Assembly: GCA_041653835.1 (NCBI GenBank)
Contig: JBAZEP010000003.1
Coordinates: 3,812 to 67,811, forward strand
DNA from: Candidatus Omnitrophota bacterium
GTDB lineage: Bacteria; Omnitrophota; Gorgyraeia; Gorgyraeales; Gorgyraeaceae
Direction: 5' to 3'
DNA length: 64,000 bases
Of this stretch, positions 5,045 through 43,371 are shown piece after piece; position 1 is the first letter of the stretch; every line of letters starts with the position of its first letter. Position numbers and translations under genes: made by a program. The notes beneath the pieces are model-generated. The model ran no database searches. It was not told where the DNA came from and saw only the letters and a list, made by a program, of their open reading frames with translations.

Positions 5045-5153
5045 CATTGACACTTTTATAATTTCTGGTAAGATATAGGTACAATTTACTTCAAAAGCGC
5101 GACTGGCGATGCATGCATGGGAAACCATGAGGGAGCGCGAATACGCAAAATCG

Positions 5154-5192
5154 AACGCCTGGGTTTTAAGAATCCAGGCGTTTATTGTTTTT
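5154..5192 (+). terminator. intrinsic terminator (9-bp stem AACGCCTGG/CCAGGCGTT + TATTGTTTTT), 3' end of a candidate small RNA
   Basis: Hairpin plus T-tract about 100 nt downstream of the promoter-like TTGACA at 5046. No ORF lies between them. Confidence 0.65.
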
Positions 5193-16483: not shown

Positions 16484-16524
16484 GTTGACAATCGCGCTTT
16501 AAAATGATTTAATAAGATAAATAA

Positions 16525-16664
16525 CGGGGAGGCCGCTGGATCGCGGCCTGAGAGTTCCGTGGAGCGAACGGATTACCCTTTGAACCTGAACTGGATAATG
16601 CCAGCGTAGGGAAAGATGTTAATTGTTCCGGCCCTTACGCGTTGTGTGTAAGGGTTATTTTTTT
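16525..16664 (+). promoter_or_regulatory. TPP (THI-box) riboswitch with intrinsic-terminator expression platform
   Basis: The conserved CUGAGA and ACCCUUUGAACCUGA.CUGGAUAAUGCCAGCGUAGGGAA core is present. It is followed by hairpin CCCTTAC...GTAAGGG plus a T-tract at 16632-16664, directly upstream of thi4. Confidence 0.85.
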
Positions 16665-26863: not shown

Positions 26864-28033
26864 TTACAATTGCTTCTTTTCCAGGAACGCCAGAGTTTCT
26901 ATGTGAGGGGTATGGGGGAAAAAGTCAAAGGATTTGAGAGACTTTAAGGTGTATGACGCGTTCAGTATCTTTAAATCCCGGCTGAGGGTGGCGGGGTTGC
27001 AGGAAAGGTATAGTATCTTTTTTATGGGGCTGAGAAGGATCTGTTGGCAGAGCATATTATCCAGGCCTTTTCTCGGGGGATCTACTATTAGCGTATCGAT
27101 ACCGCGGGCCTGGGCGGAAAAGAATAACTTTTCGCAAGGGCCTTCGTAAATCCTGAAATTCCCGATCTTGTTAAGTTTCAGATTGCCCTTCAGGAAAGAT
27201 ATATTCGCGGGGTCGGATTCTATCCCGATAATTTCTTCAGCAAAATCACTTAACGATATCCCGAACGTGCCTATGCCGCAATAAAGGTCGGCTATAATTT
27301 CTTTTTTATCCCGGGACAGATATTTTCGCGTCTCTTTGAGGACGATATCGAGCATCGGGATGTTTATCTGAAAGAACGAACCAGGGCCTATCCTGAAAGT
27401 TTTCCCTGAGATTGTTTCTTCGATATACGGTTTACCCTGTATATTTTCTATTTTTCCAGGAGCATATGCCGTGGCCATCGTGTCTTTTGTGGTATGACTT
27501 TCCCTTATCTCTATTTCCTCGATAGAATCTAAATTGTCTCTATTGATTTTTTCGATAACCGATACAAGAAGGCCGTTGACGTTACGGCTGACAAGAAGGC
27601 ATTCGTTGCCCCATTCTATGAATTTATCCTGTGTTTCAGGCGCGTGATACGCGAGAGAAGCGCGCTTATCTTTCCGGATAACGCTCAGCCTGATCTTATT
27701 CCTGTATCCCCAGATCTCAGGAGAAGGCGTGATGGTAATGGGCATATCCGGAAAAATTTCTTTTAACTGCGATTCCTTGATAGAGAGCTGTGCTTTATAG
27801 TCAATATATTGATAAGGGCCGCATGATTTATAATGGCCGCAGCGGGGGACTGCCCTGAGGGGAGAAGGTTTTATTATTTTTACGGTCTTCGCCTCGATAT
27901 AGTTTTTCTTTTCTTTGACAATTTTTGCTTCTACGATTTCATTCGGGAGCCCTTCATCCGTTAGTATAGTTTTATTGTTTAGGACAGCCAGACTTTTGCC
28001 TGGATAGATGATTTTTTGGATAGTTATTTCCAT
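26864..28033 (-). CDS. rlmD: 23S rRNA (uracil-C5)-methyltransferase RlmD/RumA family
   Basis: TRAM-like N-terminus and SAM-methyltransferase motifs (DLYCGIGTF, VDPPRKG, LSCNPATLSRD). Confidence 0.8.
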   Translation of the reverse strand: MEITIQKIIYPGKSLAVLNNKTILTDEGLPNEIVEAKIVKEKKNYIEAKTVKIIKPSPLRAVPRCGHYKSCGPYQYIDYKAQLSIKESQLKEIFPDMPITITPSPEIWGYRNKIRLSVIRKDKRASLAYHAPETQDKFIEWGNECLLVSRNVNGLLVSVIEKINRDNLDSIEEIEIRESHTTKDTMATAYAPGKIENIQGKPYIEETISGKTFRIGPGSFFQINIPMLDIVLKETRKYLSRDKKEIIADLYCGIGTFGISLSDFAEEIIGIESDPANISFLKGNLKLNKIGNFRIYEGPCEKLFFSAQARGIDTLIVDPPRKGLDNMLCQQILLSPIKKILYLSCNPATLSRDLKILNASYTLKSLKSFDFFPHTPHIETLAFLEKKQL

Positions 28034-28107: not shown

Positions 28108-28404
28108 ATGAAAAAATGTCCTTTTTGCGCGGAAGAGATACAAGATGATGCAATAAAATGCAGGTATTGTGGAGAAAACCTGGAGAAGAAAAAAGGCAAA
28201 TGGTATTTTAGCATAACGACTTTTATCATAGCGCTTCTTTGCGTCGGGCCTTTTGCCCTGCCCCTATTATGGTTTAATCCGAAGTTTACACTGGTTAAGA
28301 AAATAGTCATAAGCGTCATAATCCTTATCCTGACCTATTTTTTAGCCGTTATGACGGCGCACAGCCTGACTTCTTTAAAGAATTATTATCAGTTGGTGCA
28401 ATGA
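28108..28404 (+). CDS. zinc-ribbon membrane protein
   Basis: CPFC...CRYC zinc ribbon followed by two TM helices. Confidence 0.5.
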
Positions 28405-28429
28405 GGAGCAAAGCGGCGAATAACTAATT

Positions 28430-28504
28430 GCGCCTGTGGCCTAATGGATAGGGCACCAGCCTCCGGAGCTGGTCGTGCAGGTTCGATTCCTGCCAGGCGC
28501 ACCA
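28430..28504 (+). tRNA. tRNA-Arg (anticodon CCG), CCA encoded
   Basis: Cloverleaf with GCGCCTG/CAGGCGC acceptor stem, anticodon loop CTCCGGA and GTTCGATTC T-loop. Confidence 0.85.
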
Positions 28505-28537
28505 TGTAAGCTATGCATGCAGTGGCTGGAATAACGC

Positions 28538-28643
28538 AGGAATCGAAGGGAGACTGATAGATGCGACAAACAGGAGCATCTGCTTATCAGTCGAGTGGCC
28601 GACCCGCCGCAGGCGGGCGCCGATTCCTGCCAGGCGCACCATG
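28538..28643 (+). repeat. tRNA-associated conserved element ending in a 23-nt direct repeat of the tRNA-Arg 3' end
   Basis: CGATTCCTGCCAGGCGCACCATG occurs at 28484-28506 and again at 28621-28643. The upstream part aligns with the element at 43181-43298 (TCGAAG.GAG...ACGAC.AACAGGAG...GAGTGGCCGACCCG-hairpin-GGGCGCCGA). Confidence 0.8.
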
Positions 28644-28658
28644 AAGGAGAATTCTCAA

Positions 28659-30131
28659 ATGCAATATATACTCTCCATCGACCAGGGCACGACGGGAAGC
28701 AGGGCTGTTATTTATGATAAGCGCGGCAGGATAATAACAAGCGCGTACGAAGAATTCCCGCAGTATTTTCCAAAACCCGGATGGGTAGAACATGACCCTG
28801 AAGAGATATGGAAAAGCGTTAATAATTCTATCCAGAAAGTACTCAAAAAAATTCCAGCGGACAATATCAAAGGTATCGGCATTACAAACCAGAGGGAAAC
28901 AACGGTTTTATGGGACAGGGAATCCGGCAAGCCTGTTTATAACGCTATTGTATGGCAGTGCAGACGGACGGCTTCGAGATGCGAGGGGTTGAAAAGAAAA
29001 AGCGCCTTTTTCAGGAAAAAGACAGGCCTCCCCGTAGACGCGTATTTTTCGGCAACCAAGATAGAGTGGATATTAAAGAATGTAAAAGGGGTTTCGGAAA
29101 AAGCCAGGGCAGGGAAAATATTATTCGGCACGACCGACAGCTGGCTCTTGTGGAAACTTACCGGCGGAAAAGCCCACGCGACTGATTACACCAACGCGTC
29201 CCGCACAATGCTTTTCAATATCAAGGAGATGAAGTGGGACGCTGGAATATTAAGAGAATTTGAAATCCCGAAGCAGATCCTGCCCGAAGTCAAAAGCTCA
29301 TCGGGCATCTTCGGTTATACTGTAAGAACGGGAAGGCTCTTGGCCGGCATTCCCATATCGGGCATTGCCGGGGACCAGCAGGCGGCTTTGTTCGGCCAGG
29401 CATGCTTTGAGCCGGGCACCATGAAAAATACATACGGGACAGGATGTTTTATTTTGTTGAATACAGGCGCCAGAAGGATTATTTCGAAATACGGGCTTAT
29501 CACTACCCTTGGATGCGGAAATAACGGGAAGCCTGTCTATGTATTGGAAGGGTCAGTATTTATCGCGGGCGCGGCCATACACTGGATCAGGGACGGGCTT
29601 AAGCTTTTATCATGCGGATGCGAGTCCGAAAAGATGGCGCTTTCAGTCAAGGATAACGCGGGCGTTTATTTTGTGCCCGCTCTTACAGGGCTCGGCGCGC
29701 CTTATTGGGACCAGGACGCGCGCGGCGCCATATTCGGGATCACAAGAGGCACCAACGGGAATCATATTGTGAGAGCGGCGCTCGAAGCGATGTGTTATCA
29801 GACCCGCGATGTCCTGGAAGCCATGCGTAAAGATTCAGGGTTAAAAATAAAAAGCCTTAAGATAGACGGCGGCGCGTCCGCGAATGATTTTCTGTGCAGG
29901 TTCCAGGCGGATATACTGAGGATCAATGTAGTGAAGCCCAGGGTAACGGAAACTACGTCCCTGGGCGCGGCGTATCTTGCGGGCCTCGCGCTTGGATATT
30001 GGAAAGATACCAGCGAGATCAAGAGACTCTGGAAAAAAGACAGGGTTTTCATGCCTGAAATGTCAGGGGAAAAAGCGGATTCCCTATATAAAGGCTGGCT
30101 TGACGCTGTCAGGCGCACGCTTACTAGATGA
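28659..30131 (+). CDS. glpK: glycerol kinase
   Basis: YILSIDQGTTGSRAVIYD...GWVEHDPEEIW matches GlpK. The ATG at 28659 sits 8 nt after a GAAGGAGA RBS. Confidence 0.9.
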   Translation: MQYILSIDQGTTGSRAVIYDKRGRIITSAYEEFPQYFPKPGWVEHDPEEIWKSVNNSIQKVLKKIPADNIKGIGITNQRETTVLWDRESGKPVYNAIVWQCRRTASRCEGLKRKSAFFRKKTGLPVDAYFSATKIEWILKNVKGVSEKARAGKILFGTTDSWLLWKLTGGKAHATDYTNASRTMLFNIKEMKWDAGILREFEIPKQILPEVKSSSGIFGYTVRTGRLLAGIPISGIAGDQQAALFGQACFEPGTMKNTYGTGCFILLNTGARRIISKYGLITTLGCGNNGKPVYVLEGSVFIAGAAIHWIRDGLKLLSCGCESEKMALSVKDNAGVYFVPALTGLGAPYWDQDARGAIFGITRGTNGNHIVRAALEAMCYQTRDVLEAMRKDSGLKIKSLKIDGGASANDFLCRFQADILRINVVKPRVTETTSLGAAYLAGLALGYWKDTSEIKRLWKKDRVFMPEMSGEKADSLYKGWLDAVRRTLTR

Positions 30132-42875: not shown

Positions 42876-42951
42876 GCCCCCATAGCTCAGTTGGTAGAGC
42901 ACCTGACTCTTAATCAGGGTGTCACAGGTTCGAGCCCTGTTGGGGGTACCA
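42876..42951 (+). tRNA. tRNA-Lys (anticodon CTT)
   Basis: Anticodon loop CTCTTAA. CCA is encoded. Confidence 0.8.
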
Positions 42952-42952
42952 C

Positions 42953-43037
42953 GCGAGGGTGGCGGAATTGGCAGACGCGCTAGCCTTAGGAGCTAGTGGG
43001 GAGACCCCTGAGGGTTCGACTCCCTCCTCTCGCACCA
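42953..43037 (+). tRNA. tRNA-Leu (anticodon TAG), long variable arm
   Basis: Anticodon loop CTTAGGA with an extra arm; 85 nt. Confidence 0.8.
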
Positions 43038-43091: not shown

Positions 43092-43166
43092 GCGGGAGTA
43101 GCTCAGTGGTAGAGCTTCTCGTTGCCAACGAGAAGGTCGCGGGTTCGAACCCCGTCTCCCGCTCCA
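43092..43166 (+). tRNA. tRNA-Gly (anticodon GCC)
   Basis: GCGGGAGTAGCTCAGTGGTAGAGC...TTGCCAA...GGTTCGAAC. Confidence 0.85.
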
Positions 43167-43180
43167 TTGTTTTAGCAGTA

Positions 43181-43298
43181 GGGGTTCGAAGAGAGCCCTG
43201 TTTTGAAATACGACGAACAGGAGGATTTCAAGGGCGAGTGGCCGACCCGTAGTCCGCCGTTAGGCGGACGAAGGGCGCCGAACCCCGTCTCCCGCTCC
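43181..43298 (+). repeat. tRNA-associated conserved element ending in a 20-nt direct repeat of the tRNA-Gly 3' end
   Basis: CGAACCCCGTCTCCCGCTCC occurs at 43146-43165 and again at 43279-43298. It shares GAGTGGCCGACCCG...GGGCGCCGA and upstream blocks with the element at 28538-28643. Confidence 0.8.
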
Positions 43299-43371
43299 GA
43301 GTTCCGCCGAAGGCGGAACGAGTCCCGAGCAGCAATTTAGCTTGAAGATAGCTGCGAGGGACAAGATAAAA

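Follow-up and report, generated by a model that had tools for sequence, protein, structure and literature searches.

What is the sequence behind the tRNA-Arg(CCG) gene of a Candidatus Omnitrophota bacterium that ends in a second copy of the tRNA 3' end? The gene lies in a 64-kb stretch of contig JBAZEP010000003.1 (assembly GCA_041653835.1, positions 3,812 to 67,811; hereafter the window), for which a preliminary description had reported an exact 23-nt repeat of the tRNA end 137 nt downstream. This repeat was recovered. The window contains two exact occurrences of CGATTCCTGCCAGGCGCACCATG, 28484-28506 and 28621-28643 (period, 137 nt; 114 nt separate the copies), and a match was obtained in none of 100 shuffles with three mismatches permitted. 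The blocks described ahead of the second copy, namely, GAGTGGCCGACCCG, a GC hairpin, and GGGCGCCGA, were likewise found, at 28593-28623. The same architecture was said to follow tRNA-Gly(GCC), and it does: CGAACCCCGTCTCCCGCTCC occurs at 43146-43165, within that gene (43092-43166), and again at 43279-43298, with GAGTGGCCGACCCG at 43236-43249 and GGGCGCCGA at 43273-43281. As set out below, both loci belong to an apparently undescribed family of small (about 100- to 160-nt) noncoding, RNA-structured repeats located in tRNA and tmRNA 3' trailers, with hosts in the Omnitrophota, the Planctomycetia, and related candidate phyla.

A repeat family in tRNA trailers

The two window copies share one layout. 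The tRNA is followed by a spacer, an antisense segment (the guide), the junction G-AAGNGA, a long hairpin (P2), GAGU, a second hairpin (P3, GGCCGACCC...GGGCGC), and the tRNA sequence again from C56 (copy B); the tRNA's own 3' part is called copy A. At both loci the guide precedes the conserved block, and its sequence is the reverse complement of the T-loop and T-stem 3' strand of its own tRNA. The guide, the three-way-junction fold, and the constant start of the duplication at C56 had been overlooked in the preliminary description.

Element 1 follows an intact tRNA-Arg(CCG) gene with an encoded CCA (28430-28504; ARAGORN; Rfam tRNA, 68.3 bits); all parts of both window elements are on the forward strand. 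Copy A, the first arm of the exact 23-nt direct repeat, covers C56 to A76 plus TG (28484-28506). In the spacer or leader (28507-28535), which pairs with the tail of copy B in the minimum free energy (MFE) fold, the acceptor 3' strand and its flank are represented by a decayed reverse complement (CATG..GTG.GCTGG). The guide GCAGGAATCG (28536-28545) is the reverse complement of CGATTCCTGC (tRNA positions 56 to 65) and provides the 5' strand of helix P1, with a Watson-Crick run of 9; together with the next AA, it is complementary to positions 54 to 65 of copy A. Junction J1/2 reads AAGGGA (28546-28551; by column conservation, the family consensus with the preceding G is G-A-A-G-N-G-A). Helix P2 (28552-28592; RNAalifold and covariation) is a long hairpin that has the apical loop motif GCGAC..A.AGGAGC and is bulged on its 3' side. 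Junction J2/3 is GAGT (28593-28596; fold and column conservation), and helix P3 (28597-28620; fold and covariation) joins GGCCGACCC to GGGCGC, with a bulged C and A and a variable tip. P3 stops at the last element-specific base, and in the model, C56 (28621) gives the final P3 pair. Copy B (28621-28643; exact repeat and fold) comprises tRNA positions 56 to 76 plus TG, of which 56 to 65 are the 3' strand of P1. A glycerol kinase gene with FGGY domains starts downstream of it at 28671.

Element 2 follows the tRNA-Gly(GCC) gene, in which CCA is not encoded (ARAGORN; Rfam). Its copy A, the region of tRNA positions 56 to 72, is the first repeat match (43146-43165), and its guide GGGGTTCG (43181-43188) is, by sequence comparison, the reverse complement of CGAACCCC. 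The core (43189-43278) consists of J1/2 AAGAGA, P2 (43195-43235), J2/3 GAGT (43236-43239), and P3 (43240-43278). Copy B (43279-43298) is followed by a G at the discriminator position, compared with A in the tRNA, and CCA is absent.

One genome per species was scanned with a sequence pattern, which gave 57 loci, including 6 chance matches in GC-rich coding DNA. The 51 real genome loci belong to the Omnitrophota (34), Planctomycetia/Planctomycetales (13), Ratteibacteria (1), and unclassified genomes (3), and a looser pattern yielded at least 120 further loci in metagenome contigs. A covariance model (R1) built from 30 copies (alignment A2), the kind of search that the preliminary description had proposed for finding copies behind other tRNAs, gave 73, 78, and 22 matches. 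Once 4 false matches and duplicates had been dropped, at least 139 distinct elements remained from genomes and metagenome contigs; element-wide counts cover these distinct elements among the matches listed. The window holds just two of them, scoring 94 bits and, for element 2 (43177-43293), 87 bits. With a family of at least 139 copies and covarying helices, the duplication is not a matter of chance, as had been argued from the two loci.

Elements are always on the tRNA strand, 5 to 65 nt past the gene. A tRNA ends within 70 nt upstream on the same strand for 101 of the 139 (median, 17 nt to the model start), and the rest are mostly inner units of arrays, copies at contig ends, or copies parted from their tRNA by a later insertion. 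Hosts include at least 32 tRNA isoacceptor species plus tmRNA; the tmRNA gene (ssrA) directly precedes the elements at L035 (1275-1412, reverse strand) and L042 (1126-1264, forward strand), both of which copy the tmRNA 3' end. The association is strictly with T-arm-bearing genes. Among the origins offered in the preliminary description, a small element tied to tRNA genes fits best with this range of hosts, with the tandem arrays, and with near-identical cores behind different tRNAs. No copy was found by a pattern scan of viral contigs or by BLAST against phage genomes, and the literature searched contained no description of such a family. As candidates for the element, Rfam scans of the whole window at the gathering threshold and of 28400-28700 at E values of up to 10 returned only tRNA-related matches. 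Elsewhere in the window, a TPP riboswitch (16515-16629) and a ZMP/ZTP riboswitch (5089-5171) both score above the Rfam gathering threshold.

The element interval contains no open reading frame (ORF). Neither window tRNA is separated from its element by a promoter-like or terminator-like site, and elements often lie between tightly spaced tRNAs, where copy B may abut the next tRNA exactly as a real 3' end does. This arrangement makes it likely that the element is cotranscribed with its tRNA. Terminator-like hairpins occur in 2 of 101 spacers and in 17 of 125 downstream flanks, compared with 4 of 67 control tRNAs. A terminator role for the element was rejected on the basis of the downstream frequencies and of the position of elements inside tRNA clusters.

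The conserved fold and its tRNA-specific arms

The sense strand is predicted by RNAalifold and the model alignment to form a three-way junction made of P1, in which the guide pairs with copy B, and the hairpins P2 and P3. P1 varies with tRNA identity, and P2 covaries throughout. Standard pairs fill 96.4% of cells compared with 80.1% in shuffles, double-sided changes occur in 21 of 26 pairs (a value reached by none of 500 shuffles), and controls with slid partners are 35 to 51% paired. All 11 counted P2 pairs show compensatory changes. There are 30 G·U pairs versus 12 A·C pairs, which identifies the tRNA-sense strand as the strand that folds. The conserved fold is therefore of RNA type and lies on the sense strand.

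J1/2 (G, A, A, G, N, G, A), which lay outside every search pattern, is invariant or nearly so in 71 distinct sequences, with a few AAU/AUU variants. J2/3 reads GAGU, with GGGT in a few divergent copies, and P3 passes into P1 without a linker. The search pattern dictated the base of P3; divergent copies found by the model nevertheless carry compensatory changes there (G-C to C-G in L041, C-G to U-A in L047, and also L039). The fold z-scores of the window elements are −3.8 (element 1) and −2.75 (element 2). The fold disposes of the GGCGCC/GGCGC minihelix that had been proposed as a mimic of the acceptor end: GGGCGCC pairs with GGCCGACCC as P3 in both window copies and across the family, and the Gly copy is unable to form the proposed helix. 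The primer-binding site that had also been suggested does not agree with the antisense segment, which fits tRNA positions 54 to 65 and not the 3'-terminal 18 nt, and nothing points to a linked reverse transcriptase.

Copy B always starts at C56 of the tRNA. Its identity to the adjacent tRNA is 99.6% at positions 56 to 65, 97.0% at 66 to 72, and 95.8% at 73, and past position 73 it drops to 59% and then to 44%. A variable target duplication that reaches into the trailer was rejected because much of the extra identity is leader sequence or decayed tandem units. At loci with the T-loop TTCAAAT, copy B begins with CAA and the guide finishes with TTG. Copy B lacks CCA in every case in which the gene lacks it, indicating that B was copied from the gene and ruling out an origin from the mature tRNA. 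Guides are 7 to 12 nt long across the family, and the run of pairs between a guide and its cognate B has a mode of 7 and extends up to 12 (16 to 17 in L028), compared with a mean of 1.7 for noncognate B.

In the main Omnitrophota subfamily, the spacer consists of an AT-rich leader, a decayed complement of the B acceptor strand, and a small bulge, after which the guide begins. Duplexes between spacer and cognate B (−5.2 kcal/mol) are more stable than those with noncognate B (−4.1 kcal/mol; P = 0.017) or shuffled sequences (−3.8 kcal/mol; P = 0.004). The unit looks like a foldback in which the core stands between an inverted copy, on its 5' side, and a direct copy of the tRNA 3' part. Pairing of the spacer to the acceptor strand is weak and out of register, for which reason a faithful mimic of the acceptor/T minihelix was dropped. 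A tmRNA or tRNA-like structure was rejected on the same weakness and because ARAGORN finds no gene in the element.

Past position 62, copy B tolerates foreign hairpins. A perfect 20-nt palindrome, CTGCCTGCCGGCAGGCAGGC, is inserted between positions 62 and 63 of B behind three different tRNAs, at L120 (1330-1347), L151, L167 (897-914), and L171 (3251-3268). A free copy is present at L033 (5281-5298), and the sequence looks like a small mobile palindrome of the repetitive extragenic palindrome (REP) kind.

The predicted MFE structure of the whole pre-tRNA-Arg is a swapped fold, in which the guide pairs with copy A over 12 bp and the tRNA body closes on copy B, so that the element could in principle compete with tRNA folding. 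A different layout is found at four type-2 loci (L118, 9006-9115, reverse strand; L072, 13510-13626, forward strand; L161, 8090-8206, forward strand; L063, 965-1074, reverse strand). Here, the body of a truncated tRNA copy leads into a hairpin composed of a mutated T-loop and T-stem 3' strand, UUUU, and a guide exactly complementary to the mutated strand, and the core and a copy B whose acceptor strand is defective or missing come next. An intact copy of the same tRNA lies 60 to 170 nt downstream. In these loci P1 is formed with the upstream strand, which shows that the guide can pair with A-type sequence and that continuity of P3 and P1 is not essential.

Type-2 loci (L118, L072/L161, and L063) look as if the element had interrupted a tRNA copy within the T-arm or beside it, and this raises the question of whether the unit is an intron-like T-loop insertion. 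The unit would then begin at C56 of copy A, end with the last core base, and sit between T55 and C56, with copy B as the 3' exon; a spare 3' exon at the 5' end of the unit would make splicing optional. The left boundary is invariably C56, and the unit ends meet at the junction in the swapped fold, both of which agree with such an insertion. Archaeal noncanonical introns and split or permuted tRNAs offer a parallel in their T-loop breakpoint, in the complementary segments that join the pieces, and in the interrupted look of the type-2 loci, but the host here is bacterial and the bulge-helix-bulge motif is absent. Moreover, an intact tRNA is always there, either as copy A or as the complete gene downstream, so splicing is not required, unlike in archaeal intron-bearing tRNAs. 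The type-2 copy B with its damaged acceptor strand is pseudogene-like, and neither a group I or group II signature nor a match to any other known intron core was found in Rfam at E values of up to 10. We therefore regard an intron-like origin as very unlikely.

The identity profile of copy B also invites comparison with RNA-guided systems. TnpB/IscB omega RNAs and Cas12k homing CRISPR RNAs (crRNAs) combine a scaffold with a 3' match of ∼18 to 20 nt to DNA and a T-rich motif before the target. Cas12k uses a GGTT-type protospacer-adjacent motif (PAM) and homes to tRNA genes. The source of copy B always directly follows GGTT, ∼18 nt are identical to this target before identity falls, a conserved structured scaffold lies 5' of B, and the B locus itself is preceded by GCGC and not by GGTT. 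The element could thus be a guide RNA gene, made up of a scaffold and B as the 3' guide, for an unlinked RNA-guided DNA-binding or DNA-cutting protein that reads the T-arm GGTT as its 5' PAM or target-adjacent motif. This is highly improbable. P1 locks up the first 7 to 10 nt of the would-be guide, and in type-2 copies P1 is formed with the upstream strand. Since motif and target are both present in the intact tRNA of the same genome, that tRNA would come under attack. Next to the copies, there is no gene for a nuclease or transposase, tnpB, iscB, and cas12k included, and no Rfam omega-RNA or HEARO match was obtained.

Proposed spread and origin of new copies, and their persistence in place

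Core identity between elements behind different tRNAs of one genome averages 0.73 and is 0.9 or higher in 12.5% of comparisons. The corresponding values are 0.68 and 7.7% for the same isoacceptor in different genomes and 0.65 and 0.6% for different tRNAs in different genomes. Within-genome pairs include Val/Met in L012 (0.98), Lys/Leu in L023 (0.96), and L041/L028 on separate contigs (0.92); in each, guide and B are wholly different and fit their own tRNA. This likeness within genomes reflects spread or homogenization. Identical units form tandem arrays in L040 (three units of 125 nt), L048/L160 (five units), L028, and L104, and in L014/L075 two different subfamilies stand in tandem after a single tRNA-Lys.

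Comparison with relatives, which the preliminary description had suggested, revealed that occupancy varies. In the Arg-Lys-Leu-Gly cluster, the window has an element behind Gly only, L060 has elements behind all four tRNAs, and L023 has them behind Lys and Leu. The empty Lys-Leu junction of the window corresponds to a filled one in L088; in the window (42876-43037), one base lies between tRNA-Lys and tRNA-Leu, and the element of the relatives is inserted exactly there. The fetched loci contain 67 same-strand tRNAs without an element. Decayed or chimeric copies were found as well, including a truncated unit after B in L001 and others in L005, L028, and L039. By comparison, copies behind tRNA-Trp in three Omnitrophota bins (L006, L019, and L037) have homologous spacers, and their P2 helices differ by compensatory and G·U-intermediate changes. 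The tRNA-Trp copies have persisted in place under selection.

Other insertions share these sites. ORFs with LAGLIDADG_3 domains lie beside partial tRNA duplications in L005 (6758-7321, forward strand) and L088 (3832-4479, reverse strand), and the ORF in L088 lies between two copies of the first 19 nt of tRNA-Leu. These units are another selfish kind that duplicates the tRNA piece it displaces, at the 5' side. Between tRNA and element, L045 (1966-4915, the same region as L089) carries a Fic/DOC gene and a 452-amino-acid ORF that matches nothing in Pfam, with an additional tRNA-Glu 3' fragment at the flank, and L150 (3935-5107) carries an IS481-type transposase gene. The insertions in L045 and L150 are later than the element and separate from it.

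We read the family, tentatively and at somewhat less than even chances, as a duplicative RNA-structured element carried in tRNA 3' trailers, with both its insertion route and its host role putative. The element would be transcribed within the pre-tRNA and act as a folded RNA. Within a genome, it would give rise to new copies behind further tRNA genes, and these would multiply into tandem arrays; each new copy would be rebuilt as a foldback (antisense, core, sense) from the recipient tRNA's own 3' part. The invariant junction would be the functional center and may be recognized by the machinery as a protein-binding site, or it may itself be catalytic. It lies exactly at the boundary between core and C56, which coincides with the crossing of the P3 and P1 strands, where a hammerhead-type fold would cleave or ligate. 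What defines the two fixed landmarks, T55|C56 and the tRNA 3' end, is the structure of the tRNA and not the DNA sequence, which hints at an RNA-level or structure-guided step. After insertion, selection would keep the guide sequestered and thereby preserve the fold, since a free guide could form 12 bp with the real T-arm, whose stem has 5 bp, and disturb tRNA folding.

Several points weigh against a duplicative element. Its insertion mechanism is only proposed, and no partner protein was found among the genes within 2.5 kb, which are syntenic housekeeping genes. The likeness of cores within genomes could reflect gene conversion among old, fixed copies instead of new insertion. The proposal also leaves the rewriting of the guide for a new tRNA unaccounted for. 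Only about three positions (59, 60, and 63) vary in the usual 7 to 8 bp, so drift plus selection may suffice; rewriting by snap-back cDNA or target priming is geometrically possible but speculative, and the microhomology it requires was not found. Where A and B differ, the guide matches A in L039, L005, L028, L048, and the four type-2 loci, and it matches B rather than A in L127 and L165. Since the guide sides with A at some loci and with B at others, either may be its partner in vivo. Finally, in-place compensatory evolution, 97% conservation of the acceptor part of B, and occupied core-genome sites such as tRNA-Trp/secE-nusG would also fit an RNA that is useful to the host.

Such a host RNA would be a cis-acting trailer module for processing, folding, or regulation, with old copies kept alike by gene conversion. 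Its guide would pair with the T-arm (A) or with the decoy (B) and thereby control or assist tRNA maturation or insulate the tRNA from downstream genes. Structure-preserving change at orthologous sites and conserved operon contexts favor this explanation, as do the junction nucleotides, whose invariance is typical of a pocket for a ligand, a protein, or catalysis. An acceptor part of B that is 97% identical to the tRNA between flanks at ∼45%, the 12-bp guide-A pairing in the swapped pre-tRNA-Arg fold, and the covariation of the guide with the upstream T-arm copy in type-2 loci point in the same direction. However, it does not agree with the patchy occupancy of one tRNA cluster (the window, L060, and L023), the 67 tRNAs without an element, or the arrays of identical units. 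Two unrelated subfamilies behind one tRNA, the decayed and chimeric copies (L001 after B, L005, and L028), and a 20-nt palindrome tolerated in B at 62|63 also argue against it. We consider a host-useful trailer RNA possible but, on the whole, unlikely.

The core might also be a new class of small catalytic RNA, with cutting or ligation predicted at the crossing of P3 and P1 (last core base|C56) and with a guide that docks on the T-arm 3' strand of any tRNA or tmRNA. We find this distinctly doubtful. If true, the element would be an RNA that needs no protein, is programmed by its target, attaches itself to tRNA 3' halves, and goes back into the genome, which would make it a bacterial analogue of retrozymes or a T-loop mini-intron.

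Relation to known systems and significance

A linked protein was sought by clustering the ORFs that lie within 2.5 kb of the different loci, and only syntenic housekeeping genes recur. No integrase was found in the element or among these ORFs. A small GIY-YIG ORF follows the element in just three loci. In the window it encodes 86 amino acids (PF01541; 43372-43632, forward strand) and begins ∼70 nt past B of tRNA-Gly, with homologues placed likewise in L053 and L034; a partner nuclease and an unrelated cassette of tRNA flanks are both conceivable. Immediately downstream of B at different tRNAs, there is also a conserved hairpin, AAATCCGCC-loop-GGCGGATTT, followed by GA(T/G)YCCYGAGC (window 43301-43330, L024, L037, L053, L080, and L026), which occurs with or without the GIY-YIG ORF. 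Just upstream of tRNA-Arg, the window contains a gene for a TrmA/RumA-type uracil-5 methyltransferase (26864-28033, reverse strand). The TrmA/RumA family includes the enzyme that modifies T-loop U54, and the location of this gene is probably a coincidence.

Direct repeats of a tRNA 3' end are the classic signature of integration at tRNA genes, and the copies could be remnants or satellites of integrase islands, with the repeats as attL and attR and the core as an attP arm left after deletion of the cargo. Islands and prophages integrated by tyrosine integrases at T-loop-class att sites, and their integrase-less derivatives, the cis-mobilizable elements (CIMEs), share with our family a repeat that starts in the T-loop and restores the gene, the use of tmRNA as a target, and tandem accretion. 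The resemblance ends there. The element is 100 to 160 nt without a gene, it keeps one compact layout in at least 139 copies without an integrase, and it carries an antisense copy of the target specific to each tRNA. Its interior helices covary through G·U intermediates, unlike protein-binding sites in DNA. Viral contigs and phage genomes yielded no copy, and the real islands and insertion sequence (IS) elements at these tRNAs (L045 and L150) are separate insertions. The chance that the family descends from integrase islands is accordingly remote, and the earlier statement that the locus is not a classical attL/attR island is upheld by the gene-free interval, the housekeeping neighbors, and the RNA-like covariation.

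A miniature inverted-repeat transposable element (MITE) or other IS-derived miniature was rejected, since the inverted arms are derived from the target and differ for each tRNA and the duplication covers 18 to 23 nt from a fixed point. Target-primed retroelements of the non-long-terminal-repeat or short interspersed nuclear element kind combine a precise 3' junction with a variable 5' side and a target-site duplication; here, the core|C56 junction is exact and the spacer is variable, but the extra identity past the tRNA end is often a decayed next unit.

In topology and junction lengths, the fold resembles a type I hammerhead, with an open stem, a 7-nt junction, a hairpin, a 3- to 4-nt junction, a hairpin, 0 to 1 nt, and the open stem again. 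Both have tandem G-A/G-A around the middle hairpin, and the lone variable junction position is the fifth of seven. Tandem arrays are common to the family and to retrozymes, which are small tandem ribozyme repeats. However, the boxes of the element are GAAGNGA and GAGU, compared with CUGANGA and GAAA in hammerheads, a UH cleavage triplet is absent, and the sequence at the passage from P3 to P1 is GC|C. A hammerhead identity was thus rejected: the topology fits by hand alignment, but the CUGA and GAAA boxes are absent and no Rfam hammerhead model matched 28400-28700 at E values of up to 10.

Structured or functional RNAs in tRNA trailers are known from other settings. The theta ribozymes, which resemble that of hepatitis delta virus, are structured RNAs located 3' of phage tRNA genes and cotranscribed with them, and the element resembles them in its position and in its probable cotranscription. 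It differs in its strand order (P1, P2 hairpin, P3 hairpin, P1, without a nested double pseudoknot), its 5- to 65-nt spacer, its duplicated tRNA 3' end, and its chromosomal location in bacteria of the Planctomycetes-Verrucomicrobia-Chlamydiae (PVC) group, and no Rfam match was obtained. The 3' external transcribed spacer (3'ETS) of leuZ in Escherichia coli is a functional trailer RNA freed by tRNA processing, a single-locus, unstructured sponge. Its trailer location is similar, but 3'ETS RNAs have no repeat family, tRNA duplication, or conserved junction. Omega RNAs and crRNAs, discussed above, differ in that the first nucleotides of their presumptive counterpart are sequestered in P1 and the target with its motif remains intact in the same genome.

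For each of the known systems compared here (integrative islands, hammerheads, trailer ribozymes and small RNAs, and omega RNAs), the element therefore lacks at least one defining feature. To our knowledge, no described element combines a conserved core, sense and antisense arms derived from the target, and T-loop specificity for any tRNA or tmRNA. If a known integrase or reverse transcriptase were to move the element, the family would be a variant of that kind.

The family adds a widespread and strongly conserved structured RNA without an Rfam entry to poorly studied phyla. Its closing helix is written from the neighboring gene, and the use of one core with at least 32 tRNA-specific arms amounts to a naturally programmable design. 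In practice, B copies will be mistaken for the att sites of genomic islands or for tRNA pseudogenes, and the repeats can break metagenome assemblies at tRNA loci. More broadly, tRNA genes in these genomes are a crowded niche in which small selfish units each duplicate the piece of tRNA that they displace, as the LAGLIDADG cassettes do likewise on the 5' side.

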